Below, piece by piece: positions 2,464 to 32,000 of a stretch of 32,000 nt of DNA. The notes beneath the pieces were generated by a model. It did not search any database. It was not told the DNA's origin and worked only from the letters and a program-made list of their open reading frames with translations. Each line of letters starts with the position of its first letter. Position 1 is the first letter of the stretch. Source of the stretch: an uncultured Erysipelotrichaceae bacterium. GTDB taxonomy: Bacteria > Bacillota_I > Bacilli_A > Erysipelotrichales > Erysipelotrichaceae. Made by a program: the position numbers and the translations under genes. Where the stretch lies: assembly GCA_942492995.1 (NCBI GenBank), contig OW818653.1, positions 1,890,001 to 1,922,000 on the forward strand, read 5' to 3'.

Positions 2464-2496
2464 TTTTTTGTGCTTATATCACAAAGGAACAAGACG

Positions 2497-7923: not shown

Positions 7924-8201
7924 TAAAGAAAATTGTATTCGCATGTGATGCCGGAATGGGATCCAGCGCAATGGGAGCTACAACGTTAAGTAAGAAACTA
8001 AAAGCGGCTGGTTTAGACATTAAAGTTGTACATACAGCAATAGAAGACATACCAAGTGACGCACAATTAATCGTTACTCACACATCTCTTGCAAATCGTG
8101 CTCGTAAAGAACACCCTAATGTAGAAGTTGTCACCATCAATAGTTTTGTTGGCGCACCTGAATACGATCAACTTGTCAAACGACTCACAGAAGAAAAATA
8201 A
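7920..8201 (+). CDS. PTS mannitol-type EIIB component (free-standing)
   Basis: It has the phospho-cysteine loop [15 protein letters not shown]. The ATG overlaps the IIC stop (ATGA). Confidence 0.9.
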
Positions 8202-8208
8202 TAATACG

Positions 8209-8233
8209 AAGGGGTAGAAATACCCCTTTTTAT
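8209..8233 (+). terminator. Rho-independent terminator between the IIC-IIB genes and mtlR
   Basis: GGGGTA / TACCCC stem with a GAAA tetraloop and a T-run. Confidence 0.75.
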
Positions 8234-8309
8234 TTATGGCAACATATAATGTGTTCTATCTTAAATCATGTCACTATATAACTTTTAAAAAAGTGTTTAT
8301 AATGAAAGT

Positions 8310-13638: not shown

Positions 13639-13650
13639 AAGGGTAGGACA

Positions 13651-14370: not shown

Positions 14371-15263
14371 TGAAACAATACGAAGTTAAGAAATTACATT
14401 TAAGTAATGGTGAGACCATCGCATATCGTGAATGTGGAAAAGGTGATAAAACTTTAATTCTAGTCCATGGAAATATGAGTTCATCTGTTCACTTCCAAAC
14501 AACGATGGAAGCACTTGAAAATGATTATAAAATCTATGCGGTTGATATGCGTGGATTCGGTGATAGTTCATATAAAACAGAATTAAATAGTTTACATGAT
14601 TTCTCGATTGATCTACAACTTTGGATTAAAGCTTTAGATCTAACAAACTTTACCATCTTAGGTTGGTCAACTGGTGGTGGTGTTGTCTTAGAGCTAGCAG
14701 CGGATATGCCGAATCGTGTTAATAAAGTACTATTACTTGATTCTGTTGGAATTAAAGGCTATCCAATGTTTAAGAAGGATGACAAAGGTCAAGCAATCTT
14801 AACTCAACTCATCACGACAAAAGAAGAAATAGCGGCAGATCCTGTACAAGTATTACCGATTGTGACAGCGTATGCGACACGTAATAAAGATTTACTAAAG
14901 ATGATTTGGAATGCGGTTATTTATAATCTTAAACAACCAAATGAAGAAGATTATGACTTATATTTAGACGCAATGTTAAAACAACGTAATTTAATCGATG
15001 TGGATTATAGCTTAGTTCATTTCAATATGACACTTGATCATAATGGCGTTAATTCTGGTAGTGGAAGAATTCAATTGGTTAAAGCACCTGTTGTGATTAT
15101 GCATGGTAAAGCAGACTTTGTCGTACCATTCTCTTACGCAGAAGAAATGAAATCATACTTCAAGGATCAAGTAACTCTCGTTCCATTTGAAAACATTGGA
15201 CATTCATGTGTAACCGATAATTTAGATTTATTTATACAAACAGTGAAAGAACACGTGGCATAG
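14370..15263 (+). CDS. Serine alpha/beta-hydrolase
   Basis: It has the HG oxyanion motif (LILVHGN), the nucleophile elbow GWSTGG, and late Asp/His regions (MHGKADFVVP, IGHSCV). The start overlaps the previous stop (TAATG). Confidence 0.8.
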   Translation: MKQYEVKKLHLSNGETIAYRECGKGDKTLILVHGNMSSSVHFQTTMEALENDYKIYAVDMRGFGDSSYKTELNSLHDFSIDLQLWIKALDLTNFTILGWSTGGGVVLELAADMPNRVNKVLLLDSVGIKGYPMFKKDDKGQAILTQLITTKEEIAADPVQVLPIVTAYATRNKDLLKMIWNAVIYNLKQPNEEDYDLYLDAMLKQRNLIDVDYSLVHFNMTLDHNGVNSGSGRIQLVKAPVVIMHGKADFVVPFSYAEEMKSYFKDQVTLVPFENIGHSCVTDNLDLFIQTVKEHVA

Positions 15264-16292
15264 ATGGAAAAATCGAATATAGGGATACTTGGTATTGGTG
15301 TATATCTACCAAACCAAGTTATGACCGCAAAAGAGATTGCGGAAGCGACGAACGGTGTTTGGAGCGAAGAAGCAGTCCGTGAAAAATTAGGTATTACGCA
15401 AAAAACAATTCCAAGTGTTGAAGATGGCACTCAAGAAATGGGTGCACTCGCAGCGATTGAAGCTGTTAAAGATGCGGGAATTGATCCAAGTGAAATCGAT
15501 GTCATTGTATGTTTCGGTGAAGAATGGAAAGAATATCCACTCACAACTTCCGCATTATACATCCAAGATCGCGTAAAGGCTGTTAACGCATGGGGCATTG
15601 ATGTACAAAATCGTTGTTGCACATCCGTCACAGCACTTAAGATGGCGAAAGATATGATGATTGCGGATGATGAGATTAAGACTGTACTTGTTTGTGGAGG
15701 ATACAGAAATGGTGATTTTGTCGATTATACCGACAAGAATATGTCCATGATGTATAACTTATCCGCTGGGGGTGGAGCGCTTATCTTGCGTAAAGGATTA
15801 AATAAAAATTTACTCTTAGGTTCACATATTATCTCAGATGGATCACTAGCACGAACAGCTGGTGTTGAAATCGGTGGAACGATGAATCCAATGAATAAAG
15901 ATAATGTATCAGAAGGCTATAAATCATTACGTTTAATGGATCCTGAGAAGATGAAGAATCGACTCAATGAAGTATCACAAAATAATTGGTTGAAATGTAT
16001 TGACCGTGCTCTAGAAAAATCTAATCTTACGCGTAGTGATATCGGTTATCTAGATATCTTACATATCAAGAAATCAGCTCATTATGGGATGTTACATGAT
16101 TTAGGTCTACGTGATGATCAAAGTATTTATTTAGAGAATTATGGGCATATGGGTCAAGTAGACCAAATACTATCTTTATCGCTTGCGCTTAAAGAGGGCA
16201 AAGTGAAAGATGGGACAGTTATCTGTATGTTAGCTGCAGGCATTGGGTATGTCTGGGCTGCGAATATCGTGAAATGGGGAGTGGCTCAGTGA
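15264..16292 (+). CDS. KAS-III (FabH)-fold condensing-enzyme family protein, atypical
   Basis: It is collinear with FabH: GIGVYLPNQV at the N-terminus, DVQNRCCTS where DVAAACAGF is, and ILHIKK where VPHQAN is. ENYGHMGQ sits where DRHGNTSAAS is, so the catalytic Asn position appears to be His. The start abuts the previous stop. Confidence 0.75.
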   Translation: MEKSNIGILGIGVYLPNQVMTAKEIAEATNGVWSEEAVREKLGITQKTIPSVEDGTQEMGALAAIEAVKDAGIDPSEIDVIVCFGEEWKEYPLTTSALYIQDRVKAVNAWGIDVQNRCCTSVTALKMAKDMMIADDEIKTVLVCGGYRNGDFVDYTDKNMSMMYNLSAGGGALILRKGLNKNLLLGSHIISDGSLARTAGVEIGGTMNPMNKDNVSEGYKSLRLMDPEKMKNRLNEVSQNNWLKCIDRALEKSNLTRSDIGYLDILHIKKSAHYGMLHDLGLRDDQSIYLENYGHMGQVDQILSLSLALKEGKVKDGTVICMLAAGIGYVWAANIVKWGVAQ

Positions 16293-17164
16293 GTACGTTT
16301 ATCCAAATCTTACTAAGAAGTTTAGAGTCTGGTAGTGTTTATGCACTAGCAGCTTTAGGCATCATTATTATCTATCGTACGTCTAACATCACAAACTTCT
16401 CGCAAGGGGTAGTTGGTATGTTTAATACCTACGTAGTAACCTTCTTATTTATGAAAACGGGGGCTCCTTTGTGGTTGTGTATTTTGGGTGGTGTAGTTAG
16501 TGCGATACTAGTAGGATTAACGATCGACTTTCTGGTTATTCGACATACGAAGAAAGTTGCGCCAGTTGCTAAACAGATCATTACATTAGGATTAATCATG
16601 GTTATTATGGGAATCGCACCACTTTTATTCGGTGTTGATCCATTAAATCTACCAAAGTTAATTGGTGAAGGTAATTTAACTTTAGCCGGTGCGAATATTT
16701 CATACAATGGTTTATTTAATATCATATTTGGTTTAGTTCTTATGTTTGTTTTATTCTATACCTTACAAAAAACTAAAATTGGTCTTGCGGTTCGAACAAC
16801 CGCATCCAATGAATATACCGCTCGTTTAATGGGTGTTCCTACTAAAACCGTTACTTTAGGCGCATGGGCAGTTGCCGGTGTCCTAGGTGTTTTAGCGGGA
16901 GTTATGATAGCGCCTACGACAACAGTTACTTTAAATCTAATGGATGTTGTACAGATTAATGCCTTAGTCGCATGTGTTCTTGGTGGTTTTCAAACCTTCT
17001 ATGGACCGATTATTGGGGCTTATTTAATCGGTGTTAGTCGTAACTTATTAATCTATTATGTATCAAGTGTATGGGGTGGACAAATCCTTTACATCCTAAT
17101 ATTAATTTTCTTAATCTTTAGACCATACGGTTTAATTGGTAAGAAAACAGTGAAGAAAGTGTAG
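16274..17164 (+). CDS. HAAT-family (LivH-type) ABC transporter permease
   Basis: It is a polytopic membrane protein with LivH-like motifs (SGSVYALAALGIIIIYRTSNITNFSQG, GLAVRTTASNEYTARLMGV). An alternative GTG start at 16289 overlaps the upstream stop as GTGA. Confidence 0.88.
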   Translation: MGSGSVSTFIQILLRSLESGSVYALAALGIIIIYRTSNITNFSQGVVGMFNTYVVTFLFMKTGAPLWLCILGGVVSAILVGLTIDFLVIRHTKKVAPVAKQIITLGLIMVIMGIAPLLFGVDPLNLPKLIGEGNLTLAGANISYNGLFNIIFGLVLMFVLFYTLQKTKIGLAVRTTASNEYTARLMGVPTKTVTLGAWAVAGVLGVLAGVMIAPTTTVTLNLMDVVQINALVACVLGGFQTFYGPIIGAYLIGVSRNLLIYYVSSVWGGQILYILILIFLIFRPYGLIGKKTVKKV

Positions 17165-17171
17165 GTGTGAA

Positions 17172-18212
17172 ATGAGTAAATTTAACATTAAGACACCTTC
17201 ATTGAATGTCAAAAATTTAGTAAAGAATCCGTATTTACAATTTATCGTCTTCGGTTTATTGTTAAGTACTTTGCCGATCCTGGCCACCCAATTTTCCTTT
17301 ATTAAATCAGCGTATATCACAACCATCGGTGTCACTCTGATTTATGCCATAGCCGCCTTGGGCTTAAACCTCCTCCTTGGATGGTCAGGATTAATTTCAT
17401 TAGGTACAGCTGGGTTTATGGGTCTTGCGAGTTATATCTCAGCGTATCTAACTGTAGATATGGGACTTCCTTTCGAAGTCGCATTACTCGCCGCAATTCT
17501 AATTCCTACCTTAATCGGGGTATTAGTCGGATTAGTCTCACTCAAAATCGAAGGTCTTTATTTAGCGATTGCGACCTTGGCGGTTTCAGAAATTTTACGA
17601 AAGACCTTCGAAGAGTTTGACCAATTTACTGGTGCATTTAGTGGTAAATCTGCTAAGTTCCCCGTTCTATTCAATTCATTTCAGTTAGACCGTGCAACGA
17701 TGTATTACTTCATCGTATTCGTACTAATCATCATTATGTTAATTACATATAACTTAGTGAATGGACAAATGGGACGTGCACTTAATGCGATGCGTGGTTC
17801 AGAAGCTGCGGCACAAGCAATGGGTGTTAACCTATTGAAATATCGTTTAGTCGCATTTGCCTTAGCTACTATGTTCGCATCAGTATCCGGTGTTCTCTAT
17901 GTACACTTTATCCGATATTCCTATCCATCCTCATGGACACTTAAGTTGTCATTAGACTTCTTGGCCATGATTGTGATTGGTGGAGTACGTTCGATTTATG
18001 GAACAGTACTTGGCGCATTCATTGTATTTGCGGTTCCTGATTTGTTCCTAAAACAAATTCCGTATTTTAATCAATTGTCCTACACCTTAAATGGAATTCT
18101 AATTATCTTAGTCATTATGTTCTATCCAAATGGAATTATTATGATTTTCAAAGATATTAAGAATCTATTCAATAAGTTAATTAAGAAAGGAAATGGGAAT
18201 CATGCTAAGTGA
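17172..18212 (+). CDS. HAAT-family (LivM-type) ABC transporter permease
   Basis: LivM-like features: GLNLLLGWSGLISLGTAGFMGLASY, GRALNAMRGSEAAAQAMGVN. Confidence 0.88.
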   Translation: MSKFNIKTPSLNVKNLVKNPYLQFIVFGLLLSTLPILATQFSFIKSAYITTIGVTLIYAIAALGLNLLLGWSGLISLGTAGFMGLASYISAYLTVDMGLPFEVALLAAILIPTLIGVLVGLVSLKIEGLYLAIATLAVSEILRKTFEEFDQFTGAFSGKSAKFPVLFNSFQLDRATMYYFIVFVLIIIMLITYNLVNGQMGRALNAMRGSEAAAQAMGVNLLKYRLVAFALATMFASVSGVLYVHFIRYSYPSSWTLKLSLDFLAMIVIGGVRSIYGTVLGAFIVFAVPDLFLKQIPYFNQLSYTLNGILIILVIMFYPNGIIMIFKDIKNLFNKLIKKGNGNHAK

Positions 18213-19008
18213 AAATGAAGTTCTGAAGATAGAGAACTTATCCATTGCCTTCGGAGGATTAAAAGCAGTCGATAATCTTACATTTGAAATTAAGAAGAAT
18301 GAAATATTTGGTTTAATTGGACCGAATGGTGCAGGTAAAACAACGGTATTTAATTGTATTACCCAGTTCTATAAACCCAATGATGGAAAGATATTGTTTA
18401 GATTAAAAGATGGCAGTGAAACGAATTTAGTTGATCATAAAGTACATGAAATTATCAAACTTGGTTTAGTACGTACCTTCCAGAACGTTGAACTCATTCG
18501 TGAGTTAAGCATCTTAGATAACGTTATGATTGGGGCACATATCGACTTTAAAGCGAGCATTCTTGAACAAGCTCTAAGATTACCAAGAGCGCGTAAAGAA
18601 GAGAAGGCATTACGGTTAGAAGCAGAAGAAATATTAAAGCGTTTAGGGATATGGGATCGTAAAGATATGTTGGTCTTTGGACAACCATATGGGATTCTAA
18701 AGAAAGTTGAAATGGCACGTACCTTAATGTGTCGTCCAACTCTCATTATTCTAGATGAACCAGCAGCGGGGTTAAATGATGTGGAAACCATTCAACTAGC
18801 TCAATTAATACGTACCATTCGCGATGAATTTAATTGTTCAGTTCTATTAGTTGAACATGATATGCGCTTAGTTATGGATGTATGTGATCGTATTTGTGCT
18901 ATCTCGTTCGGTAAATTCTTAGCGAAGGATACAGCGAAAGAGATTCAGAAGAATAAATCGGTACAAGAAGCGTACCTAGGAAGTTCTGAGGAAATTCAAC
19001 ATGTCTAG
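18193..19008 (+). CDS. HAAT-family (LivG-type) ABC ATP-binding protein
   Basis: It has Walker A GPNGAGKTT, Walker B LIILDEPAAG and H-loop LVEHDM. The true start may be ATG 18202. Confidence 0.9.
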   Translation: MGIMLSENEVLKIENLSIAFGGLKAVDNLTFEIKKNEIFGLIGPNGAGKTTVFNCITQFYKPNDGKILFRLKDGSETNLVDHKVHEIIKLGLVRTFQNVELIRELSILDNVMIGAHIDFKASILEQALRLPRARKEEKALRLEAEEILKRLGIWDRKDMLVFGQPYGILKKVEMARTLMCRPTLIILDEPAAGLNDVETIQLAQLIRTIRDEFNCSVLLVEHDMRLVMDVCDRICAISFGKFLAKDTAKEIQKNKSVQEAYLGSSEEIQHV

Positions 19009-19720
19009 TACAGCACTCTTTATTAAAGGCTTAAAAGTTAGATATGGAGCGATTGAAGCACTTAAAGGCATTGATATGGAAGTTAAAGAAGGCGATGTCG
19101 TAGCGATATTGGGTGCGAATGGGGCTGGTAAAACGACCACATTACGTACAATATCAGGACTCATCGAACCAGCAGAAGGAAGCATTCTCTTCTACAATCA
19201 TGAGATTGGTAGGGAAGAACCTGAGAAGATTGCGGCACTTGGTTTATCACAATCACCAGAAGGAAGACAAGTATTTAGAGATTTAACCGTAGAAGAAAAC
19301 TTGAAAGTAGGTGCATTTACGGTAAGAGATAAAAAGATTATTAAAGAACAGTTTGAAAAAGTATATCGTTACTTTCCAGTTCTTAAGGAACGTAAAAACC
19401 AAATATCATCAACCTTATCCGGTGGTGAACAACAGATGTTAGCGATTGGACGAGCATTGATGAGTAATCCTAAAATATTACTCTTAGATGAACCATCCCT
19501 TGGTCTAGCACCATTAATCATTCGCGATATTATGAACATCGTTCTTGAGATTAAGAAATCAGGAACTACCGTAATCATTGTCGAACAGAATGCGGCACAA
19601 ACCTTAAAGATTGCGGATTATGCGTATGTGTTGGAGTTGGGTGAAATCAGTACTCATGGTCCAGCGAAAGACTTGCTTAACGATCCTAAGCTCATTGAAG
19701 CGTATCTTGGATCACATTAA
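19001..19720 (+). CDS. HAAT-family (LivF-type) ABC ATP-binding protein
   Basis: It has Walker A GANGAGKTT, the signature LSGGEQQMLAIGRAL, Walker B LLLDEPSLGLAP, and EQN. Confidence 0.9.
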   Translation: MSSTALFIKGLKVRYGAIEALKGIDMEVKEGDVVAILGANGAGKTTTLRTISGLIEPAEGSILFYNHEIGREEPEKIAALGLSQSPEGRQVFRDLTVEENLKVGAFTVRDKKIIKEQFEKVYRYFPVLKERKNQISSTLSGGEQQMLAIGRALMSNPKILLLDEPSLGLAPLIIRDIMNIVLEIKKSGTTVIIVEQNAAQTLKIADYAYVLELGEISTHGPAKDLLNDPKLIEAYLGSH

Positions 19721-19766
19721 TTTGGTATCAATGCGAAACGCATTATATAAACAAAAGGAGGAATAC

Positions 19767-20993
19767 ATGATGTTTAAGAAGTTGTTTATGGTTCTTACAG
19801 TTATGGCTCTAGCGACGACACTCGTTGCTTGTGCGCCAAAAGAAGAAGTAGTTGAAGAAGTCGCAGCTCAAGGGATTACAGACACTGAAGTGTTAATCGC
19901 TAACTGTGCAGCAACATCTGGTGCATTTGCGCCAGTTGGTACTCCGTTTATTGCAGGGATTGAAGCTTACTTAAAAACGGTCAATGATGCTGGTGGTATC
20001 GATGGACGTACAATTAAATTCTTACACCAAGACGATGAATTTGATCCTGCAAAGGGTAAAGCATGTTTAGCATCTATGGTTGAAGATGAAAAAGTCTTCG
20101 CTATCGTTGGTCACTTTGGTACTCCAGTTGTTGGGGCTACTTTAGAAGATCTTAAAGATTATGGTATTCCAGCTGTATACTTCGCTACAGGTATCGGTCA
20201 ACTTTATAATGATAAAGCTGAAGGTCGCGACCGTGGTATTATGCCTGTTCAACCAATTTATGTCACAGAAGGACAAATCATGGTTGCGCGTGCTGTTGGG
20301 GATTTCGGAGCTAAGACAATCGGTATTATCTATACAAATGATGATGCTGGTAAAGACATTTTAGCTGGTGCTCAAAAGAAAGCTGCTGAATTAGGTATTA
20401 CATTAGTTGAAGCTCAAGTTGCGCCTGGTACAGATGATGCGTCTGCAGCAGTTACAACAATTAAAGAAGCAAATGTAGATTTCATTATCGGTGGAGCAAT
20501 CCAAGCAACGATTCCTACAATCATTAAAGAATTAGCTGCTCAAGGTAATGACAAAGATTTAATCACAACATACGTTAACGTTGCGCCAGTTATTGCGGAA
20601 TCCGTAATGAATGAAATCGCTGGTAAATTTGATGTATACGGTAGTGGTTGGGTATCATTTGAAGGTGATGACCGTATGGCTGCACTTAATGAATTCGCAA
20701 CTGCTTTACCTGAATATTCTGCTAATGCATACGCTATGACTGGCTGGATTGCCGCAACATTCTTCGTAGAAGGTTTACGTCGTTTAGAAGGTGACAAGAT
20801 TGTTACTTGGGAAAACTACTTAGACGCTATGGAATCTGCACCAATCCAAAATCCATTTGGTGGTTTAATTGATTACACAAATGGTCTACGTGCTGGTACA
20901 CAAGAAATGAACTTATCCAAGATCAACCCTACAACTCCTACTAAATGGGAAGTTGTCGATGGTTTAAGATCAATGGATGATTTATTAAGCTAA
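19767..20993 (+). CDS. HAAT-family (LivJ-like, Peripla_BP_6) substrate-binding lipoprotein, ligand unknown
   Basis: An AAAGGAGG SD precedes ATGATG at 19767. The signal peptide with lipobox is MMFKKLFMVLTVMALATTLVAC. The body is type-I PBP-like (IDGRTIKFLHQDDEFDP..., VGHFGTPVV). The track start at 19611 lies inside livF and is an artefact. Confidence 0.85.
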   Translation: MMFKKLFMVLTVMALATTLVACAPKEEVVEEVAAQGITDTEVLIANCAATSGAFAPVGTPFIAGIEAYLKTVNDAGGIDGRTIKFLHQDDEFDPAKGKACLASMVEDEKVFAIVGHFGTPVVGATLEDLKDYGIPAVYFATGIGQLYNDKAEGRDRGIMPVQPIYVTEGQIMVARAVGDFGAKTIGIIYTNDDAGKDILAGAQKKAAELGITLVEAQVAPGTDDASAAVTTIKEANVDFIIGGAIQATIPTIIKELAAQGNDKDLITTYVNVAPVIAESVMNEIAGKFDVYGSGWVSFEGDDRMAALNEFATALPEYSANAYAMTGWIAATFFVEGLRRLEGDKIVTWENYLDAMESAPIQNPFGGLIDYTNGLRAGTQEMNLSKINPTTPTKWEVVDGLRSMDDLLS

Positions 20994-21016
20994 TAGGTTA
21001 CAATTAAATAGAACTG

Positions 21017-21042
21017 GTTGCGGAAGTTAAACCTTCCGCAAC
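21017..21042 (+). other. Strong intra-operon hairpin without a U-tract
   Basis: Perfect 10-bp stem GTTGCGGAAG / CTTCCGCAAC with a 6-nt loop, followed by ACCCTTTATGG, which is not a T-run. Confidence 0.6.
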
Positions 21043-21049
21043 ACCCTTT

Positions 21050-22369
21050 ATGGAGAAAACAATAATGGATATTTCAATCAAAAAGATTACTGCAAGTGAA
21101 GCTGTTAAAAAAGTAAAAAGTGGAATGATGATCGTTACAGGACTTGGATGTGCTGAAGGACGTGCGTTCTTAGGCGAATTACATACTGTTGCGGATGAAG
21201 TGAGTGGCGTTACAGTTACGAACTGTCTACCGATGTCAGATCCAGAGTTTATGAAGAAGGAATATAAAAATTCATTCTATGTGGATGGATGGTTCTATTC
21301 CCCAGCTTTACGTAAAGCACATCAAAATGGAAATATATCCTTTATCCCGAATCATTTACATCTTGCTGGGACAAAGCGTTTAGCGCATGTTCATACAGAT
21401 ATATATGTCGGTGCTTGTTCAATGCCTGATAAACACGGATATGTCTCATTATCCTTGAGTAATACGTATGAAAAACGTGTCATTGAAGAAGCAGATTTAG
21501 TTATATTAGAAATTAACCCACATATGCCATATACCTATGGTGATTTAGAATTGCATTTAGATGAAGTAGACTATGTAATTGAAGCAGATTATTATCCTGC
21601 AGAATTACCGGATGTCGAACCGAATGAACGAGATATTGCGATTGGGAATAATATTGCGAGCCAAATCAATGATGGAGATTGTATCCAATTAGGGATTGGT
21701 GGTATTCCAAATGCGGTCGCATCTGCACTAAAGAATAAACGTGATTTAGGGGTTCATACAGAGATGTTAACAACTGGTCTCATGAAACTCGCTAAAATGG
21801 GTGTTATTACAAACAAACGTAAAACATTACATAAAGGTAAGATGGTCTGTACTTTTGCGATGGGAAGTAAAGAACTCTATGAGTTTATTGATCATAATCC
21901 AGGTGTCGCAGTTCTTGATGGTGCGTATACCAATGATCCACATATTATTGGGTTAAACGATAATATGGTTTCAATTAATACAACCTTAGAAATTGATTTA
22001 ACTGGACAATGTTGTTCAGAGTCTATTGGTTCTACTCAATTTAGTGGAACAGGTGGACAAGTTGATACTGCAGTTGGGGCTCAAAATGCGAAGAACGGAA
22101 GATCGTTTATAGCGTTATATTCTACCGCAATGGTTAAGAATCCTGAAACTGGTGAACGTGTTGAAACATCTAAGATTGTCCCTCAATTAAAGCAAGGGGC
22201 TGTCGTAACCTTAAGTCGTAATGATGTGAATTATGTCGTGACTGAATATGGAATGGTTAATCTAAAGGGTACTAATGTACGTGAACGTGTGAAGTTGTTA
22301 ATCTCGATTGCACATCCTAAATTCAGAGATGAATTGCTTGAACAAGCTAAATCATTGGGAATCTTATAA
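21050..22369 (+). CDS. Acetyl-CoA hydrolase/transferase-family CoA-transferase (4-hydroxybutyrate / butyryl-CoA:acetate type)
   Basis: It has the family motifs GIGGIPNAV, HTEMLT and SGTGGQVD, and the expected length of about 435 aa. ATG 21065, with GGAG 9 nt upstream, is an alternative start. Confidence 0.85.
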   Translation: MEKTIMDISIKKITASEAVKKVKSGMMIVTGLGCAEGRAFLGELHTVADEVSGVTVTNCLPMSDPEFMKKEYKNSFYVDGWFYSPALRKAHQNGNISFIPNHLHLAGTKRLAHVHTDIYVGACSMPDKHGYVSLSLSNTYEKRVIEEADLVILEINPHMPYTYGDLELHLDEVDYVIEADYYPAELPDVEPNERDIAIGNNIASQINDGDCIQLGIGGIPNAVASALKNKRDLGVHTEMLTTGLMKLAKMGVITNKRKTLHKGKMVCTFAMGSKELYEFIDHNPGVAVLDGAYTNDPHIIGLNDNMVSINTTLEIDLTGQCCSESIGSTQFSGTGGQVDTAVGAQNAKNGRSFIALYSTAMVKNPETGERVETSKIVPQLKQGAVVTLSRNDVNYVVTEYGMVNLKGTNVRERVKLLISIAHPKFRDELLEQAKSLGIL

Positions 22370-23184
22370 TGGCTACTTTAGATTTTAAAGATTATTCAAT
22401 TTACTATGAAGTGTATGGCAAAGGTAAACCACTTGTTATGCTCAACGGAATTATGATGTCTACAGCGAGTTGGCAAATGTTTATTATGAACTTTAGTCAA
22501 TCCAATCAATTGATTCTTGTCGATATGTTAGATCAAGGTCAATCGTCTAAATTAGAAGGACAAATCTACACACAAGATATTCAAGTTGAAGTTGTTAAGA
22601 CGTTAATTGAAAAGTTAAACTTAAAAGAAGTTGCGTTATTTGGGATATCGTATGGTGGCGAAGTTGCGATTAAACTTGCGATTAAATACCCGCATTTAGT
22701 CGAAAGATGTTTACTCTTTAATACCACGAGTTATACCAATTCATGGTTAAAAGAAATTGGTAATGCGTGGAATCTTGCGAGTCCAAACGCTGAACAATAC
22801 TATGGCACAACTATCCCAGTAATTTATTCATCCGACTTTTATGAATCCAAGATTAAATGGATGACGCATCGTAAACAAATCCTTTTAAATGTATTCGCTA
22901 ATCCAGTGTTTCAACGTGCAATGGTACGCTTAACTAACAGCGCAAATTCATTGGATGAACGACATAATCTACATAAAATAAAATGCCCATGTTTGATCGT
23001 TGGATGTGATGAAGATGCGATTACACCTATTTCTCATCAACGGTATCTTCATGAAAACATTAAGTCTTCAAGTTTAGTTATTATTCCTGGTTCTGGGCAT
23101 GCGTCAATGTATGAGAAACCAATGTTATTTAGTTCACTTGTACTTGGATTTGTGCATTCGTTGATTATTCCAGATGTGGTATAA
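22369..23184 (+). CDS. Serine alpha/beta-hydrolase (second copy, different subfamily)
   Basis: It has the nucleophile elbow GISYGG and late Asp/His regions (VGCDEDAITP, GSGHASMYEKP). The start overlaps the upstream stop (TAATG). Confidence 0.8.
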   Translation: MATLDFKDYSIYYEVYGKGKPLVMLNGIMMSTASWQMFIMNFSQSNQLILVDMLDQGQSSKLEGQIYTQDIQVEVVKTLIEKLNLKEVALFGISYGGEVAIKLAIKYPHLVERCLLFNTTSYTNSWLKEIGNAWNLASPNAEQYYGTTIPVIYSSDFYESKIKWMTHRKQILLNVFANPVFQRAMVRLTNSANSLDERHNLHKIKCPCLIVGCDEDAITPISHQRYLHENIKSSSLVIIPGSGHASMYEKPMLFSSLVLGFVHSLIIPDVV

Positions 23185-23207
23185 TTGAAACGATTTGAGG
23201 GAAAATT

Positions 23208-23798
23208 GTGAACACTCTTGTAAACCAACCAAAAACTAAACGAGGACAAGCGACACTAGATCGACTTTGTGCTGCGGCTGAACAATTATTCTTTAAAAAA
23301 GGGTATCATGGGACTTCGATTAATGATATTACCTATAAGGCAAAAGTTGCGCCAGGAACGTTCTACATTTACTTTACGGATAAATTGAGTTTGTATAAAT
23401 ATCTTCTTATTTCGTATAGTCATCAAATTCGTATGAATATTGCGAAGGATGTGAAGGATTGTAAGGATCGTAAAGAAATAGAGCGGATTGGGTTAAAGAG
23501 TTTCTTAGTATTTATCAAAGAAAATAAACATGTTTATAACATTATTTGGGAGTCCTTGTATATCGATAAGAAATTATTTATCGAATATTATACCGATTTC
23601 GCAGCGAATTACGTTAAACATATAACTGAAGCACAAGCGATGGGTGAAATGAAAAATCATGATCCTGAAGTTGTGGCATATATCTTAATGGGTGTTTCAA
23701 ACTTTATTGGGTTGAATTGGATTATGTTCAAAGAATCCAGTGAATTTGATACAGTTGTAGATAAAGTTATTAAGGCATTAGATGAAGGATTATTTTAA
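23208..23798 (+). CDS. TetR/AcrR-family transcriptional regulator
   Basis: The N-terminal TetR HTH reads LDRLCAAAEQLFFKKGYHGTSINDITYKAKVAPGTFYIYF. It uses a GTG start with a GAGGG SD. Confidence 0.88.
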   Translation: MNTLVNQPKTKRGQATLDRLCAAAEQLFFKKGYHGTSINDITYKAKVAPGTFYIYFTDKLSLYKYLLISYSHQIRMNIAKDVKDCKDRKEIERIGLKSFLVFIKENKHVYNIIWESLYIDKKLFIEYYTDFAANYVKHITEAQAMGEMKNHDPEVVAYILMGVSNFIGLNWIMFKESSEFDTVVDKVIKALDEGLF

Positions 23799-24423: not shown

Positions 24424-25095
24424 ATGAATTTTATCTACTTTGGGACATTATTTGTCGTTGTTGGATTTAGTATAAATATTGGTGGAGGTCAAGTCGAGTT
24501 ATTTCCAGATGCGATTGGTTACTTTTTAATTCTAAAAGGTACACAAAGCTTATTAGAACTTCAACCAAATTTTAAGAAACTCCAACCACTTCTTTATTTC
24601 TTATTGGGGTATAATGCGTTAGTCTTTATCGATAAATTGTTTAACATTATCCCAAATAATGGCTATATTTACTTCGTGTTTGGATCAATCGCATTAGTGT
24701 TATATTTCTTAGTCTTCTATCGTTTATTCAAAGATTTCGATGGACTTAAAGTTAAACTAAGACGACCTGAAGAAGTAGATCGTTTGAATCGCTCATGGTT
24801 ACGATATACCTACGCGAGTATTATCTTCTTAGTGTTATCGGTGTTAGAAGCTATATACTTTATTACAACCTTAGGTTTTGCGGCTCTTCAAACCTTATTT
24901 ACCTATTTCCTTAACTACTCGACTACCCTTGAGGCTGCTGTTACAGAATTATTAAATAGTAATCAAATCGTTATAACAAGCGTATTTATTTATATCTTAA
25001 TTGCGATTGTAATTGTACTCACTATCTTGGTTTATCTCTTCAAAGTCATCTATTCATTGTATAAGATTAACAATGATTTCCGTACCGCTCAATAA
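24424..25095 (+). CDS. Hypothetical polytopic membrane protein
   Basis: It has about 6 hydrophobic segments and no recognisable motif. The start lies 1 nt after the maf stop. Confidence 0.6.
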   Translation: MNFIYFGTLFVVVGFSINIGGGQVELFPDAIGYFLILKGTQSLLELQPNFKKLQPLLYFLLGYNALVFIDKLFNIIPNNGYIYFVFGSIALVLYFLVFYRLFKDFDGLKVKLRRPEEVDRLNRSWLRYTYASIIFLVLSVLEAIYFITTLGFAALQTLFTYFLNYSTTLEAAVTELLNSNQIVITSVFIYILIAIVIVLTILVYLFKVIYSLYKINNDFRTAQ

Positions 25096-26459: not shown

Positions 26460-27344
26460 ATGTTAAGTAAAGAAATAAAAATGTTTATCGAAATGCTTGC
26501 ACGGGATAAAGAGGCAAATCGTGGGAATAAATTTACGGCTGAATCTGCAATTGCGACAAGAAAATCAATTGATGAGAAGATTGGTGGTTATACAGATTCA
26601 TTAGTGGAAATTGAAATGATAAAGAATCAACTCACATCTGGCGAGTTTTACCATTTTAAAGGGAATAAAAATCCTGATAATATTATTTTGTTTATTCATG
26701 GCGGAGGTTTTGCGGTAGGAAGTGTTGAATCTAGACGTAAAATGTTTATGGACATCCTAAAAGAGAGCAAAATGGATGCTTATTCTGTTGATTATGGTCA
26801 ATGGCCAGAAGCTAAACATCCTCAAGGGTTGAACGATTCTATTAATGCATATAAATATCTATTAGAACAAGGATATAAAGCTGAGAATATTTGTTTGTTT
26901 GGTGAGTCAGCTGGTGCTATGCTTGCTTTAACCACAACGTTATATTTAAAGGATAATGGTTTTGCTTTACCGGCTAAGATTAGTGTATTCTCACCAGTTG
27001 CTGGTCAAGAAATCGATTTACCTTCTCATACACTTAGAGATAAACGAGATCCAATGATAATCTTCGAAGAAGTTGTGCCATATTATGTTGGATCTGATTT
27101 CAGCTCCCCATATGTTTCTCCAATATTTGGTGATTACAAAGGATTTCCACCACTCTTTATTCATGTAGGAACAGAAGAAGTATTATATGATGATGCGATT
27201 GAAATTTATAAAAAATGTGTTGAAGCAGGTGTAACTGTAACGCTAAGGGAATGGGAAGGTTTATTCCATGTTTTCCCACTTTTCCCATCACCTGAATCTG
27301 TTATGGCTGTTAAGGAAATTGCAAACTACTTTTCAACAAAATAA
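26460..27344 (+). CDS. Family IV (hormone-sensitive-lipase-like) esterase/lipase
   Basis: It has the HGGGF oxyanion motif and the GESAGA nucleophile elbow. An AAGGAG SD lies 8 nt before ATG 26460, which is an internal Met of the track ORF. Confidence 0.85.
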   Translation: MLSKEIKMFIEMLARDKEANRGNKFTAESAIATRKSIDEKIGGYTDSLVEIEMIKNQLTSGEFYHFKGNKNPDNIILFIHGGGFAVGSVESRRKMFMDILKESKMDAYSVDYGQWPEAKHPQGLNDSINAYKYLLEQGYKAENICLFGESAGAMLALTTTLYLKDNGFALPAKISVFSPVAGQEIDLPSHTLRDKRDPMIIFEEVVPYYVGSDFSSPYVSPIFGDYKGFPPLFIHVGTEEVLYDDAIEIYKKCVEAGVTVTLREWEGLFHVFPLFPSPESVMAVKEIANYFSTK

Positions 27345-27392
27345 TAGAAAATTAAATATTCGAATTAATATCGTCGAATTGCGAGGTAAATA

Positions 27393-29000
27393 ATGTCATA
27401 TCAATTTAAGTGCATCATTGCTGAAGATGAAAGAAGGATGGCGGATCTAGTTCTTTTACTTGGACATTGGGATGAATACAAAATTGATATTTTAGATGTT
27501 TGCTATAACGGTATTGATGCTCTAGACAGTATCATCAAAAACAAACCTGATCTAGTTATTACTGATATTAAAATGCCGGGTTATGATGGTCTTGCATTAA
27601 TACAAAAATGCCGGGAATATCAAATCGATTGTGCTTTTATTATTGTAAGTGGTTATAAACATTTTGAATATGCCAAAAGCGCAATGCAAAATGGTGTAGT
27701 CGACTATATTTTAAAACCAATTGATGAGGAACAATTGAATATTGCAATTGGAAAAGCCATCAAAATTATTAATGAAAAAAATACAACAGGAATTATAAAA
27801 ACTGAACGAGATGAATATTTCAATAAATATCAAAATATTAAATACAGCGACTTTTGGAGACAACTATTTTCAAGTGCTTTTAACGATAAAGTATTCAATT
27901 ATGAAAAATATGTTGAGTTACTGCCACCAGAAAAATTACACTGGGTCTATCGAATAATATTTGTTAGGACGACGATTGATAATATACTTGATGAAAATAC
28001 ACTATTCAGAGAAAAGCTTAATTCAATATTAAACAATATTGAAACAGATAGATTAAGCCTTCTTTATCAATATAGTAAAGAAGGAATCTTTATACTTTTA
28101 AATTATGAAAATGACTTGGATCTAAATATTAATCAAGTTATTTCAAGTGTTTACTATAAACTTAGTAACTTGACAGAAATTTTCGATGATTTTGATTTGG
28201 CGTTTGGTTATAGTAGAAAAATAAATAGTATTTCTGATTTAGGTAAAATCATGAAAGAAGCAATTGCTGCTGAAACTTCAAAACTTATCTATGGGATGAA
28301 TAAGATTATTTCATTTGAGATGATTCAAAACTTACCAAGATTTTCTCCAGAATCGATATTAACGGATGATTTGATAAATAACTTGAAAAATGCATATGAA
28401 TACCTAAAGATTAGCGATATATATGATTTACACCAAGAATTATTAAATAAGTGTGAAAAATATCAAGGTTTTAATCCTTGGGATATGATCAAGATGCAAC
28501 AATATTTATTGGAAGTTACATTATCGTTATTTATCAATAATGTCGAGGAACTTGAGAGTAAACGTATCGAAACTTGGTGGTTTGCTAGCCAATCTTATCG
28601 ATTTGTAGATTTTATTAGTTTAACTTTAAAATCAATCGAGAAATATTTTGAGGAATATTTACTTCAACAGAAACAAATTCATATTCTGCCTACCGAAAAA
28701 GCTATAAACTATATCGAGGGTCATTATGCTGAATCAATTACACTAGAAGAGATATCTGAATATGTTGGCCTATCTCCAAATTATTTCTCAAAAGTTTTTA
28801 AGAATGAAATGGGTAAAGGTTATTCTGATTTTTTAATTGAATATCGAATAGAGAAATCAAAAAAACTTTTAGCTGAAACAACTGAATCTGTAAAATCAAT
28901 TTCTGTTAGTGTTGGTTATCCAGATCAAAAGTATTTTTCAAAACTTTTTAGAAAAATTACAGGAATTAAGCCCTCAGAATACAGAAAGTTGTATTCGTAA
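27393..29000 (+). CDS. YesN-type response regulator (REC + AraC-family HTH)
   Basis: The receiver has the acidic pocket (AEDE), the phospho-Asp region LVITDIKMPGYDG, and LKP. The C-terminus carries a dual AraC HTH (LEEISEYVGLSPNYFSKVFK...SVGYPDQKYFSKLFRKITGIKPSEYRK). Confidence 0.9.
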   Translation: MSYQFKCIIAEDERRMADLVLLLGHWDEYKIDILDVCYNGIDALDSIIKNKPDLVITDIKMPGYDGLALIQKCREYQIDCAFIIVSGYKHFEYAKSAMQNGVVDYILKPIDEEQLNIAIGKAIKIINEKNTTGIIKTERDEYFNKYQNIKYSDFWRQLFSSAFNDKVFNYEKYVELLPPEKLHWVYRIIFVRTTIDNILDENTLFREKLNSILNNIETDRLSLLYQYSKEGIFILLNYENDLDLNINQVISSVYYKLSNLTEIFDDFDLAFGYSRKINSISDLGKIMKEAIAAETSKLIYGMNKIISFEMIQNLPRFSPESILTDDLINNLKNAYEYLKISDIYDLHQELLNKCEKYQGFNPWDMIKMQQYLLEVTLSLFINNVEELESKRIETWWFASQSYRFVDFISLTLKSIEKYFEEYLLQQKQIHILPTEKAINYIEGHYAESITLEEISEYVGLSPNYFSKVFKNEMGKGYSDFLIEYRIEKSKKLLAETTESVKSISVSVGYPDQKYFSKLFRKITGIKPSEYRKLYS

Positions 29001-29005
29001 TTGAT

Positions 29006-29782
29006 ATGAAACTAAAAAACATTTTTAAAGTCTTTGAAAGTACATCAAAATCTGAGGAAGATTTTAATAAAGTTAAAAGTATAAGCTTATCCGAAAATAC
29101 GTGGGAAATAGAATACAAATTACTTCAAAGCCAGATAAATCCACATTTTTTATACAATACACTTGACTCAATCCGAAGTGAAGCTTTGAAACATAACGAA
29201 AATGAAATTGCGAGTATGATTGAGAGATTATCGCGGTTTTTTAGATACAGTATAAGTAGTACTGGGAACTTCGTTAAAATTTCTGAAGAATTAAACCACA
29301 TAAATGATTACTACTACATTCAGAAATTCAGATTTGAAGAAAGACTTGAGATGGTTATCAAGATTGATAGTGAAGAACTAAAGGAATGCTATATTCCTAA
29401 AATGACGCTTCAACCACTTATTGAGAACGCCATTACTCATGGGCTTGAAAAGAAATTAAACCCAGGACTAATTACGATTCATATATTTGGAACAAAAAAG
29501 AAAGTATATATTCAAATTGAAGATAATGGGGTTGGTATTGAATCTGAATTACTTAAAAAAATAAATGATAAGCTAATTTCTTCTGATCTAAAATTCGATC
29601 GAATATCAAAAAATAGTGGAATTGCATTATTAAATGTAAACGCGCGTTTAAAGATGTTTTTTGGTAAAACTTATGGAATAAAAGTTAGAAGTTTGGTAAA
29701 TGTTGGGACAACAATGGAAATCATTGTTCCACGAGTATCGGACAATGAATTAGCTGAATATGACTTCAGGTTAAAATTATAA
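29006..29782 (+). CDS. YesM/LytS-type histidine kinase catalytic core only (His_kinase + HATPase_c, no transmembrane, HAMP or sensor region)
   Basis: The H-box LLQSQINPHFLYNTLDSI begins at about residue 40. It also has the N-box LIENAITHG, G1 EDNGVGI and G2 SGIALLNV. The protein is 258 aa with no hydrophobic segment. It starts 5 nt after the response-regulator stop. Confidence 0.85.
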   Translation: MKLKNIFKVFESTSKSEEDFNKVKSISLSENTWEIEYKLLQSQINPHFLYNTLDSIRSEALKHNENEIASMIERLSRFFRYSISSTGNFVKISEELNHINDYYYIQKFRFEERLEMVIKIDSEELKECYIPKMTLQPLIENAITHGLEKKLNPGLITIHIFGTKKKVYIQIEDNGVGIESELLKKINDKLISSDLKFDRISKNSGIALLNVNARLKMFFGKTYGIKVRSLVNVGTTMEIIVPRVSDNELAEYDFRLKL

Positions 29783-31068
29783 TGCTAAAACAAGAATATT
29801 TATGGCTAAGAAATATTGATGTCAGTAATGCACACCATGAGCAACTGTTAAACTATGATTTATCTATTTTTGAAGGGGAAATTATTTGTATAACAAGTTC
29901 TACTTTTTCAAAGAGAAAGCTCGTTTCAAACTTAATTTTAGGGTATCTAAAACCAGAAAATGGCAGTATTTTTTTAAACGAGAAATTATGTAAAAACTAT
30001 AATGCTCAATTTGCTTTCTCACATGGTATATCTAGTTCTGAATCAACCGGTAGTTTAGTAAAAACAATGAAGATTGAACATAATTTATTCGCATTACGTG
30101 AACGAAATAATCCATTAAGTATTTTTAATGAAAAAGCTGCACAAATACAAACTCAAAAAATATTGAATTCTTTAGGTTTATTTGATTATAAAAATAAATT
30201 AATACAGGATTTATCGGTATATGAGCAACAGATCGTATGTCTTGCAAAATCTGTTATTAATAATGCAAAAATTATTGTAGTCAATGATACATCTATGAAT
30301 TCTTATGAAGAGAAGATGCAATTGATAAAAAACATAAAAACCTATTCTAAACAAGGAGTTAGTTTCATAATTATCTGTGATGAGAATGATGAGTCTATTT
30401 ATCATGCTAATCGTATTCAATATATTTCAGATTCAAACCAAATTTTTGAATTTGAAGAAGTTAAACAATTTCTAGTTTTCTTAGATGATCAGAACTCATC
30501 GCTAATGAATAAAAATATCTCACAAAGAAATAGTTCTCTTGATTTTTTAGTTCCAAATAGTATGGATGCTTTTAGATATGATGACGCAATTTTAGATATG
30601 TGGTTATCTAAAAGGCAAGCGTATGAAATAACAGGAAATATAGATCGATATTTTATACCAAATTTTTCAATTAAAGAGAATATTTGCTTAGGCATTTATT
30701 CTAAACTTACTACTTGGAGTATTTTAAACGAAAATCTTATCGATTTTACTTTTCTTGAAGCCAAACGGTTTGCGAATATTACTAACTCATCAATTAGTAT
30801 AGATAAGTTGACTCATTTACAAAAATTACTTTTACTCATTTATCGTGTTTCATTACAAAATCATAAATTTATCATTTTAAACGACATCTTTAATGAAATG
30901 GATGATTATGAATGGAGCCATCTTATTAGAACTTTGGAAGATTTGGTTGAAAAAAGAACAGTAATCTATTTTAAAAACTGTAATAGTCATTATTTCCGAA
31001 TAAAGTCATCCAATTTTTATCAACTTGACCGCAAGAAAGCAATAATGATAAAAAAAGACACCTTTTGA
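29782..31068 (+). CDS. Degenerate (predicted catalytically inactive) tandem-NBD CUT2 sugar-ABC ATPase homologue (RbsA/MglA-like)
   Basis: It is collinear with RbsA-type ATPases. LSVYEQQIVCLAKSVINNAKIIVVNDTS aligns with LS-x-QQMVEIAK-x-L-x-IIMDEPT. Walker A is replaced by ITSSTFSKRKL, Walker B DE by ND, and H-loop SH by CD. The second half keeps LTHLQKLLLLIYRV...FIILNDIFNEMD, but no Walker A is visible. The ATG overlaps the kinase stop (TAATG). Confidence 0.7.
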   Translation: MLKQEYLWLRNIDVSNAHHEQLLNYDLSIFEGEIICITSSTFSKRKLVSNLILGYLKPENGSIFLNEKLCKNYNAQFAFSHGISSSESTGSLVKTMKIEHNLFALRERNNPLSIFNEKAAQIQTQKILNSLGLFDYKNKLIQDLSVYEQQIVCLAKSVINNAKIIVVNDTSMNSYEEKMQLIKNIKTYSKQGVSFIIICDENDESIYHANRIQYISDSNQIFEFEEVKQFLVFLDDQNSSLMNKNISQRNSSLDFLVPNSMDAFRYDDAILDMWLSKRQAYEITGNIDRYFIPNFSIKENICLGIYSKLTTWSILNENLIDFTFLEAKRFANITNSSISIDKLTHLQKLLLLIYRVSLQNHKFIILNDIFNEMDDYEWSHLIRTLEDLVEKRTVIYFKNCNSHYFRIKSSNFYQLDRKKAIMIKKDTF

Positions 31069-31081
31069 TAGAAATGGTTCA

Positions 31082-31111
31082 TTGTTTGCGATTAATCGAG
31101 AATACTATAAT
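31082..31111 (+). promoter_or_regulatory. Candidate promoter for the sugar-binding protein gene
   Basis: TTGTTT (31082-31087), an 18-nt spacer, then TATAAT (31106-31111), upstream of the AGGAGGAAAG SD. Confidence 0.4.
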
Positions 31112-31146
31112 TTGGCCATAAAGTTATCTGACTTTAGGAGGAAAGA

Positions 31147-32000
31147 ATGAAGAATTTACTTAAATTAGTATTTGTTGTTGCTATGAGTATTGGTATGTTG
31201 ACAGCTTGCAGTTCAAATAATGCTCCTGTAGCTGAAGAAGGTAGTGGTATTTTTGGTGTAAGTATTATGACTTTAGGCGCAGAATTCTTTACTGGATTAC
31301 AATCATCCATGGAAAAAGTTTTCGGTGAAGAAGGATTTGAAGTTGTAACGGTTTCCGCTGAATTGGATGTTGCAAAACAGGTTTCAGATATAGAAAATTT
31401 GGTAACTCAAGAAGCAGAAGGTATTCTAGTTGGACCAATGGATCCAAACAGTTTACAAGATGCATGTATCGCAGCACGTGAAGCTGGAACAAAAATTATT
31501 ACATTTGTACCATTCGAAGATCCTGAAGCATACGATGTTTTAATTGGTATTGATGAATCTCAATTGGGCTTAGCTGCAGCTGAATTAGCCTCTGAATGGG
31601 TAGACCAAAAATTTGCAGAAAATGAAAATGCTAGTGTGACAACGATCTTGATCACATATCCTACAAACCCAAATGCTGTATTACGCGATGAAGGGTTAAT
31701 GACAATTGCTAATAATTTAAAAGTTAATCTTGTAAAGAATTACGAACTAGGTGCTGCAGATTCTGTGGATCGCGTTCAAGAGTTTATGGAAATTGCTTTA
31801 GCTGAATATCCTAATCTTAACTTAATCTTAGTACATGATGCATCATTTGCGATTGCTGCAAATGAAGTGTTAGCTAGAACTAGTGGAGTTGATGCTTCAA
31901 AAGTTGGTATCTTTGCGATCGGTGCATCTGAAGCTACTGTAAATGCAGTTGCTGATTCAAAAACCGATGCTTCTATGATCCGTGGTTTAGTTGCTTTAGA
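31147..32000 (+). CDS. CUT2-type (RbsB-like, type-I PBP) sugar ABC substrate-binding lipoprotein, 3' end outside the window
   Basis: It is absent from the ORF track because no stop lies in the window. My hand translation is open from ATG 31147 to nt 32000. The SD is AGGAGG. The signal peptide with lipobox is MKNLLKLVFVVAMSIGMLTAC. The body reads FGVSIMTLGAEFFTGLQSSMEK...VAKQVSDIENLVTQEAEGILVGPMDP, typical of ribose/galactose-type binding proteins. Confidence 0.8.
   Translation, partial: MKNLLKLVFVVAMSIGMLTACSSNNAPVAEEGSGIFGVSIMTLGAEFFTGLQSSMEKVFGEEGFEVVTVSAELDVAKQVSDIENLVTQEAEGILVGPMDPNSLQDACIAAREAGTKIITFVPFEDPEAYDVLIGIDESQLGLAAAELASEWVDQKFAENENASVTTILITYPTNPNAVLRDEGLMTIANNLKVNLVKNYELGAADSVDRVQEFMEIALAEYPNLNLILVHDASFAIAANEVLARTSGVDASKVGIFAIGASEATVNAVADSKTDASMIRGLVAL

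Follow-up and report, generated by a model that had tools for sequence, protein, structure and literature searches.

A degenerate CUT2-type ATPase paralogue as a candidate signal-input partner of sensorless YesM-type kinases

The cytoplasmic face of ATP-binding cassette (ABC) importers can report transport status to a regulator or a kinase, as in the MalK–MalT and PstB/PhoU–PhoR systems, in which the report is given by an active ATPase (MalK, through its regulatory domain) or by a non-ABC adaptor (PhoU), and neither of which features a dead nucleotide-binding domain (NBD) paralogue. In the pre-translocation state of the maltose transporter, docking of the binding protein alone partly closes the MalK dimer. 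The BceS kinase, which has only two transmembrane helices and no extracytoplasmic sensor, is activated in an entirely ABC transporter-dependent manner and regulates the transporter operon (PMC8534201, PMC7828314). In the XylFII–LytS–YesN system of Clostridium beijerinckii and the CuaD–CuaS–CuaR system of Ruminiclostridium cellulolyticum, a duplicated binding protein feeds a LytS/YesM-type kinase (PMC8050422, PMC10384115). Here, we describe a 32,000-nucleotide stretch of DNA from an uncultured Erysipelotrichaceae bacterium (assembly GCA_942492995.1, contig OW818653.1, positions 1,890,001–1,922,000 of the forward strand; the whole stretch is referred to as the window), in which a short YesM-type kinase gene is followed by a gene encoding a degenerate CUT2-type tandem-NBD protein of 428 amino acids (29782–31068, + strand; referred to as the pseudo-ATPase). 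We tentatively propose, with a little less than an even chance of being right, that this protein has been kept as a third component that feeds the signal into a transporter-coupled two-component system whose YesM-type kinase is sensorless.

As in the BceS–BceAB flux-sensing modules of Firmicutes, a sensorless kinase is encoded together with a transporter, and the two-helix kinase variants of related loci look similar to BceS. However, Bce systems rely on an exporter-type permease, which has an FtsX domain and a large extracellular domain and touches the kinase within the membrane, and on an active BceA, whereas the present loci combine a CUT2 importer (BPD_transp_2), a PF06580 kinase that can be devoid of transmembrane segments, and an extra dead NBD paralogue. 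The XylFII and CuaD systems share with the window a duplicated importer subunit, a LytS/YesM-type kinase with its regulator (of the AraC type in the window), and an adjacent sugar ABC operon. Their duplicate, however, is an extracellular binding protein contacting the periplasmic domain of the kinase, whereas here a cytoplasmic ATPase subunit takes that part, the kinase is devoid of an extracytoplasmic domain, and there is one binding protein. The present arrangement is unlike these precedents in that the co-opted subunit is a dead cytoplasmic copy of the motor and the kinase can be fully soluble. The open-access literature yielded no account linking a kinase with a degenerate CUT2 ATPase, although an earlier description elsewhere is possible.

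The pseudo-ATPase and its sensorless kinase

A first-pass annotation, made from the letters of the window alone, had described the pseudo-ATPase as collinear with RbsA/MglA-type CUT2 ATPases. This was borne out by the top NCBIfam models, which were all CUT2 ATPases (AraG, GguA, YtfR, AlsA, RbsA, XylG, and MglA), and by a collinear alignment to such ATPases that spanned both halves of the protein, i.e., two fused NBDs of which the second is truncated. The layout comprises NBD1 (approximately aa 1–232), a linker (approximately aa 233–270), and the truncated NBD2 (approximately aa 271–428), and the protein falls ~65 residues short of real CUT2 ATPases owing to the absent N-terminal part of NBD2. 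Pfam returned a single ABC_tran match in the N-terminal half (residues 29–167, E = 1.4e-8) and no detection for the second half alone. The AlphaFold2 model (mean pLDDT of 77, pTM of 0.54, with a disordered low-confidence linker at residues 239–267) matched solved ABC NBD structures in Foldseek (E = 1e-15, TM ~0.8 on the target), so that the Pfam and Foldseek results agree on an NBD fold with a RecA-like core and a helical subdomain. The pseudo-ATPase thus resembles the CUT2 ATPases (RbsA, AraG, XylG, MglA, and the rhamnose-associated RhaT) in its fold, its collinear tandem-NBD layout, and its best NCBIfam and protein matches, as well as in having a Peripla_BP_4 gene next to it and, in related loci, a BPD_transp_2 permease gene. 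It differs from them in lacking the nucleotide-binding and catalytic motifs, in its truncated NBD2, and in scoring about ten-fold under the NCBIfam cut-offs (36–65 bits vs. 689–850, with the first half alone aligning), none of the curated CUT2 equivalog cut-offs being reached (the best being AraG with 65 bits vs. 689).

Motifs were aligned with those of solved NBDs (YtrE and PotA) and of genuine CUT2 ATPases, including the ones encoded downstream in orthologous loci, and all catalytic motifs proved to be substituted in the window protein and in four orthologues. In NBD1 (all coordinates on the + strand), the Walker A remnant reads SSTFSKRKL (aa 39–47; 29896–29922) instead of GENGAGKST or GRSGSGKST, the Q-loop reads SES instead of YQE, and the signature remnant reads LSVYEQQ (aa 144–150; 30211–30231) instead of LSxAQQQ. 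The Walker B remnant IIVVNDTS (aa 164–171; 30271–30294 vs. the genuine ILIMDEPS) has its Asp changed to Asn and its catalytic Glu to Asp, and the H-loop position holds C-D-E (aa 199–201; 30376–30384) instead of S-H-R. In NBD2, the Walker A segment (genuine GLIGAGRTE) is missing or unalignable around the linker (239–267), the signature has become LTHLQKL (aa 343–349; 30808–30828 vs. LSGGNQQ), the Walker B has become FIILNDIF (aa 363–370; 30868–30891 vs. ILIFDEPT), and the alignment places NCNS at the H-loop. None of the hallmarks of an active ABC ATPase (i.e., Walker A, Walker B plus the H-loop His, and the signature plus the Q-loop Gln) was found in the pseudo-ATPase. The substitution of Walker A, of the Walker B Asp-Glu pair, and of the H-loop His, together with the lack of a visible Walker A in the second half, had been read correctly at first pass, since profile and structure-guided alignments agreed and brought no intact but misplaced Walker A or B motif to light. 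To judge from these alignments, canonical ABC ATPase chemistry is impossible for the pseudo-ATPase.

Outside the catalytic motifs, the protein keeps the post-Q-loop ENxF/ENIxL motifs of CUT2 ATPases, namely E-H-N-L-F in NBD1 (aa 99–103; 30076–30090, + strand) and K-E-N-I-C-L in NBD2 (aa 298–303; 30673–30690, + strand), each where the helical subdomain begins, of which N101 (4.14 vs. 4.32 bits) and N300 (4.01 vs. 4.32 bits) are invariant in pseudo- and real ATPases alike. The share of information that the degenerate family keeps with respect to real CUT2 ATPases was highest in the N-terminal strands (ratio of 0.75) and the helical subdomains (0.74 and 0.72), and was lowest at Walker A (0.50), at Walker B and the D-loop (0.55–0.58), and in the C-terminal part of NBD2 (0.45). 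The family also has conserved residues of its own, e.g., E5, W/R8, and Y25, with RIQY at 211–214 in closer clades. Three cysteines that are invariant in the close clade (C36, C199, and C302) were considered as a metal or redox site, which was rejected because they vary in the wider family.

The open reading frame (ORF) of the pseudo-ATPase has a GC content of 26.7%, at which a stop is expected with a probability of 0.089 per codon (i.e., one per ~11 codons) and 428 open codons would arise by chance with a probability of 4.6e-18. Open runs reached at most 152 codons in 2000 shuffles, and the two remaining forward frames are interrupted by 39 and 61 stops, in line with the initial remark that a 428-codon ORF is maintained in very AT-rich DNA. 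A search of 5.8 billion clustered proteins returned only four further close members of the family (68, 63, 41, and 40% identity), all of full length, and the ORF is unbroken in all five orthologues down to 40% identity. The ratio of nonsynonymous to synonymous substitution rates (dN/dS; Nei–Gojobori method) was 0.086–0.119 for the pseudo-ATPase, similar to that of the kinase (0.066–0.081) and the regulator (0.035–0.126), with values of 0.11–0.13 for a neighbouring hydrolase, 0.044 for the real ATPase, and 0.020 for the permease. Since dS values of 1.5–2.5 are close to saturation, these ratios are approximate, yet they are far from the neutral value of 1. The pseudo-ATPase is under purifying selection, and the gene is retained rather than decaying, as had been claimed beforehand.

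Directly upstream lie the two genes of the two-component system. The YesN-like response regulator (535 aa; 27393–29000, + strand) consists of a receiver, a middle region of ~300 aa, and an AraC-type helix-turn-helix domain (Pfam Response_reg, 2e-19; HTH_AraC, 1.6e-22; HTH_18, 4e-21), and keeps this position in related loci wherever the contig includes the upstream end. The YesM/LytS-type kinase (258 aa; 29006–29782, + strand) consists of a histidine-kinase core only, with a DHp domain (His_kinase PF06580; residues 36–114, 5e-28) and HATPase_c (residues 135–243), and has no transmembrane, HAMP, or sensor domain. A longer N-terminus is impossible, as the kinase ORF begins 6 nt past the regulator stop. 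Its catalytic motifs are intact, with H47, N141, and D173/G175/G177 (i.e., the phospho-acceptor His and the N and G1 boxes) invariant across cassettes. The kinase stop codon and the pseudo-ATPase start codon overlap by one base (TAATG, 29780–29784), and this overlap, which had been noted in the first-pass annotation, is conserved in the orthologous loci of the window's clade. A search with the kinase returned thousands of relatives, of which the best 120 were all short (222–344 aa) and had either nothing or a bare two-helix transmembrane hairpin before the DHp domain.

Many partner kinases carry such a hairpin without an extracellular loop (e.g., L012, 8001–8945; L031, 7001–8002; P0044, P0075, and P0099), and in the soluble ones the N-terminus is a basic/aromatic stretch (MLWKRKK, MFRWRKK, or MWFKRKR) resembling a juxtamembrane segment. 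This series suggests that the membrane anchor of the kinase was lost stepwise. The short kinases also share a tail after the catalytic domain, approximately P-x-[VI]-[DST]-[DE]-x2-[LF]-x2-3-Y, which in the window corresponds to 29740–29779 (VPRVSDNELAEY) and recurs in L008, L011, L012, L014, and L015. It is absent from two full-length YesM-type kinases used for comparison, themselves near-identical to each other, and is possibly a docking peptide.

A recurrent cassette ahead of CUT2 transporter genes

Downstream of the pseudo-ATPase gene, a spacer of 78 nt (31069–31146, + strand) holds a –10 box (TATAAT, 31106–31111), a weak –35 box, and a ribosome-binding site (AGGAGG, 31136–31141). The –10 box (TATAAT or TACAAT) and the ribosome-binding site are conserved in all five orthologous loci, and no terminator-like site was found between the pseudo-ATPase and binding-protein genes. 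This spacer is a candidate promoter of the transporter operon, possibly dependent on activation by the regulator. The operon opens with the gene for a lipoprotein substrate-binding protein (Peripla_BP_4, Pfam 3e-30, with lipobox LTAC; 31147–32000, + strand), which is cut by the end of the window. As only a single Peripla_BP_4 binding protein is encoded per cassette, there is no dedicated sensor binding protein.

What follows the binding protein could be read from orthologous loci, which support the anticipated presence of CUT2 transporter genes (i.e., binding protein, genuine ATPase, and permease) beyond the window. A short assembly with a 100% identical pseudo-ATPase (L001) continues from the binding protein into a genuine ATPase with an intact GENGAGKST. 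Two further loci, i.e., L002 from an Erysipelotrichaceae metagenome-assembled genome and L003, have the same upstream neighbours as the window (a ROK protein and a hydrolase) and go on to encode a real tandem ATPase, a BPD_transp_2 permease, an alpha-L-rhamnosidase, RhaB, RhaA, and RhaD. With a genuine ATPase encoded downstream, the pseudo-ATPase is not the motor of the transporter. The rhamnosidase and RhaB/RhaA/RhaD genes make L-rhamnose or a rhamnoside the most likely cargo in L002 and L003 and, by extension from these orthologues, at the window locus. Between L002 and L003, identity is 89–95% for the binding protein, real ATPase, and permease, but 64–78% for the regulator, kinase, and pseudo-ATPase; these mosaic rates could mean either that the sensor genes are less constrained or that the transporter genes have recombined.

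The same gene order, i.e., AraC-type response regulator, short YesM-type kinase, pseudo-ATPase, binding protein, genuine tandem ATPase, and CUT2 permease, recurred, as far as each contig reaches, in every locus examined. This holds for four look-ups within the window's clade and for all seven short kinases looked up outside it (P0035, P0033, P0030, P0065, P0054, P0103, and P0118; 46–57% identity to the window kinase), where the third gene encodes a protein of 396–488 aa with a single N-terminal ABC_tran match. Two more loci, reached via the pseudo-ATPase, showed the regulator, kinase, and pseudo-ATPase in order, one of them with the real ATPase and permease as well. The genes downstream vary by cassette and include rhamnose genes, an aldolase with an iron-dependent alcohol dehydrogenase (Fe-ADH), and a sulfatase. 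The pseudo-ATPases of these wider cassettes are only 21–29% identical to the window protein, which is why the first search had missed them.

A metagenome scan with the five-member alignment gave no match, a scan of species-representative genomes gave a single locus (in an Erysipelotrichaceae metagenome-assembled genome), and a word-indexed profile search gave one distant addition only (P0144). When 1.84 billion representatives were searched exhaustively with a profile, 162 matches fell below 1e-30. When motifs were tabulated for the best 147 new representatives (clustered at 50% identity), 108 had neither the NBD2 Walker A nor, in either half, the Walker B Asp-Glu, 28 were genuine ATPases, and 11 were intermediate. 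Together with the six members already known and three from the loci above, this makes 117 degenerate sequences, in which the NBD1 Walker A is a full GxxxxGK[ST] in 28 cases, is reduced to GxxxxGK in 31 and to the glycines in 25, and has left nothing in 33. By this measure, motif loss is graded and has gone furthest in the window's clade.

Larger matches of ~500 aa were also considered as degenerate members and rejected, as nearly all have the full motif set of genuine ATPases and none is a member; a few are without the NBD2 Walker B Asp-Glu alone. Separately, P0243, P0253, P0262, and P0279 form a half-degenerate CUT2 class with NBD1 Walker A and B intact and NBD2 Walker A and B lost (e.g., ILLLMNPT), and may be single-site motors instead of sensors.

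Signal input to the kinase and competing explanations

The dead motifs, the purifying selection, the conserved overlap with the kinase gene, and the downstream CUT2 genes uphold the original suggestion of a retained, non-catalytic role, and the constant pairing with sensorless YesM-type kinases makes a signal input to the kinase more specific than generic scaffolding. In the proposed mechanism, the pseudo-ATPase would, in some transporters, replace the real ATPase on the coupling helices of the permease dimer by means of its preserved helical subdomains. Docking of the sugar-loaded binding protein (carrying L-rhamnose or a rhamnoside here) would then shift the permease, which would move the two pseudo-NBD halves relative to each other and thereby toggle the bound kinase core between its kinase and phosphatase states, after which the phosphorylated regulator would activate the promoter ahead of the transporter/rhamnose operon. 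The importer would double as a receptor, and the sensor would inherit the specificity of the binding protein. Such a signal input would account for the missing sensor of the kinase, for the single binding protein, and for the preserved helical subdomains, and it would explain how one type of trio can serve transporters with different cargo.

A number of observations nevertheless speak against this proposal. Docking of the pseudo-ATPase to the kinase or the permease is something we only infer, and the gene context has been seen for ~10 lineages, compared to a family of 108 further clusters. The N-terminal beta-subdomain of NBD2 is absent in the window's clade, the Q-loop Gln, which is also involved in coupling in real NBDs, is lost, and the pTM value leaves the mutual placement of the two halves uncertain. 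Moreover, the preference for conserving the helical subdomains is modest. Across eight cassettes, in which pairs are few and non-independent, the pairwise distances of the pseudo-ATPase correlated best with those of the regulator (r = 0.96) and the kinase (r = 0.94), which speaks for the proposal, followed by the binding protein (0.77) and the real ATPase (0.66), and tracked those of the permease least (0.56). Across nine cassettes, the NBD1 helical subdomain of the pseudo-ATPase was not unduly similar to that of its cognate real ATPase (p = 0.51), and the p-value of 0.046 for the NBD2 helical subdomain is uncorrected and belongs to an overall negative test. With no cognate excess and the permease tracked least, nothing shows co-adaptation to the transporter. 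Instead, the co-divergence and the negative cognate test indicate that the pseudo-ATPase belongs evolutionarily to the signalling trio and, on these comparisons, is an old lineage and not the product of repeated recent duplications of the local ATPase.

The same results would fit a cytoplasmic sensor, which we regard as unlikely, although it withstands the data best among the alternatives. Here, the pseudo-ATPase would never touch the transporter but bind the imported sugar, a catabolite, or ATP/ADP, and regulate the kinase directly, in the way PII does with NtrB. Its co-divergence with the kinase and regulator instead of the permease and ATPase, and the missing cognate signal in the helical subdomains, are in its favour, as is the Walker A lysine kept (as GxxxxGK) by 59 of the 117 degenerate sequences, 28 of them with the complete GxxxxGK[ST], which could bind nucleotide at a site to which the conserved signature remnant of NBD2, L[ST]xxE[KR]K, contributes. 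Nucleotide binding cannot be the family-wide signal, however, since Walker A is gone from the window's clade (SSTFSKRKL, or SSRYIYQRM in more distant orthologues). Moreover, the NBD fold has no known sugar-binding pocket, and the strict adjacency to a CUT2 importer everywhere would be left unexplained, save as the regulated target.

Strong co-divergence with the kinase and preserved helical subdomains would likewise agree with a kinase platform, in which the coupling-helix grooves of the pseudo-NBDs hold the N-terminal or juxtamembrane helices of two kinase protomers as a constitutive dimerisation or activation scaffold, with the signal entering elsewhere, e.g., through the ~300-aa middle domain of the regulator. 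A tandem pseudo-dimer would suit a kinase homodimer, the kinase N-termini are short basic/aromatic segments or two-helix hairpins followed by such segments, and the overlapping start and stop codons are compatible with co-translation of both proteins. Because the system would be left without an identified sugar input, and because the N-terminal segments of the kinases show little sequence conservation, we consider this platform rather improbable.

Still less probable, to the point of being hard to sustain, is that the pseudo-ATPase acts as a brake on transport, i.e., that it slows uptake by competing for the permease with the real ATPase, while adjacency to the kinase gene reflects co-expression only. 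The retained helical subdomains and the CUT2 importer genes that always adjoin its gene would agree with such a brake, which would not explain the systematic loss of the sensor in the partner kinase or a divergence that tracks the kinase and regulator, nor why the gene always lies close behind the kinase gene (overlapping it in the window's clade) and not in the transporter operon behind the conserved promoter. Finally, a decaying, pseudogene-like duplicate without function, for which the loss of all catalytic motifs and of ~65 NBD2 residues and its being the fastest-evolving protein of the cassette (64.5% identity vs. 89–95% for the transporter genes) might be invoked, was effectively ruled out by a dN/dS of ~0.1 and by a frame that stays open in DNA of 26.7% GC (chance probability of ~5e-18), and is further contradicted by conservation of the protein in all orthologues and in lineages at only 21–29% identity and by strongly conserved family-specific residues (e.g., E5, Y25, N101, and N300).

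If the pseudo-ATPase is indeed a signal-input component, a plausible though distinctly tentative extension is that these cassettes represent an unnamed and widespread class of Firmicute sugar sensors, in which the importer would double as receptor, while a dead ATPase paralogue takes the place of the motor in sensor complexes and relays substrate-induced permease movement to a sensorless kinase. Such a plug-in module could provide any CUT2 transporter with a two-component switch specific to its inducer. The window's clade would then be an evolutionary end point at which the nucleotide site and the membrane anchor of the kinase are both gone. Such a class would explain sugar perception by hundreds of sensorless YesM-type kinases of gut and rumen Firmicutes, and would add a pseudo-enzyme to the known routes from transporter to two-component system (Bce flux sensing, PhoU, MalK–MalT, and sensor binding proteins). 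The conformational signal passing from permease to NBD would become readable as gene expression without ATP turnover, which would be useful for studies of coupling in ABC importers. In current annotation, the family is labelled just ABC_tran or sugar ABC ATP-binding protein, so that transporters are over-counted and a regulatory family would be hidden.

Other features of the window

The region of the sensor genes (27001–31000) has a GC content of 26–31% per kb, compared to 32–41% in the rest of the window, including 36% in the binding-protein gene just downstream. The coordinates that follow are all on the + strand. A protein of 835 aa (2470–4977), in which a pyridine-nucleotide disulfide oxidoreductase is joined to Rhodanese, TusA, and DsrE-like domains, looks like a CoA-disulfide or persulfide reductase. 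A co-directional cluster (12433–23798) encodes a thiolase, a short-chain dehydrogenase, an alpha/beta hydrolase, a KAS-III-like protein, a LivHMGF-type ABC transporter with Peripla_BP_6, a CoA-transferase, a second hydrolase, and a TetR regulator. Next to maf, a 223-aa protein (24424–25095) with long hydrophobic stretches is probably membrane-spanning and has no Pfam match. Finally, a WYL/WCX-domain regulator (450–1490) and a mannitol-type phosphotransferase system operon (6868–12279; EIIC, a PRD/Mga regulator with EIIA, EIIB–EIIA, and mannitol-1-phosphate dehydrogenase) are ordinary-looking.

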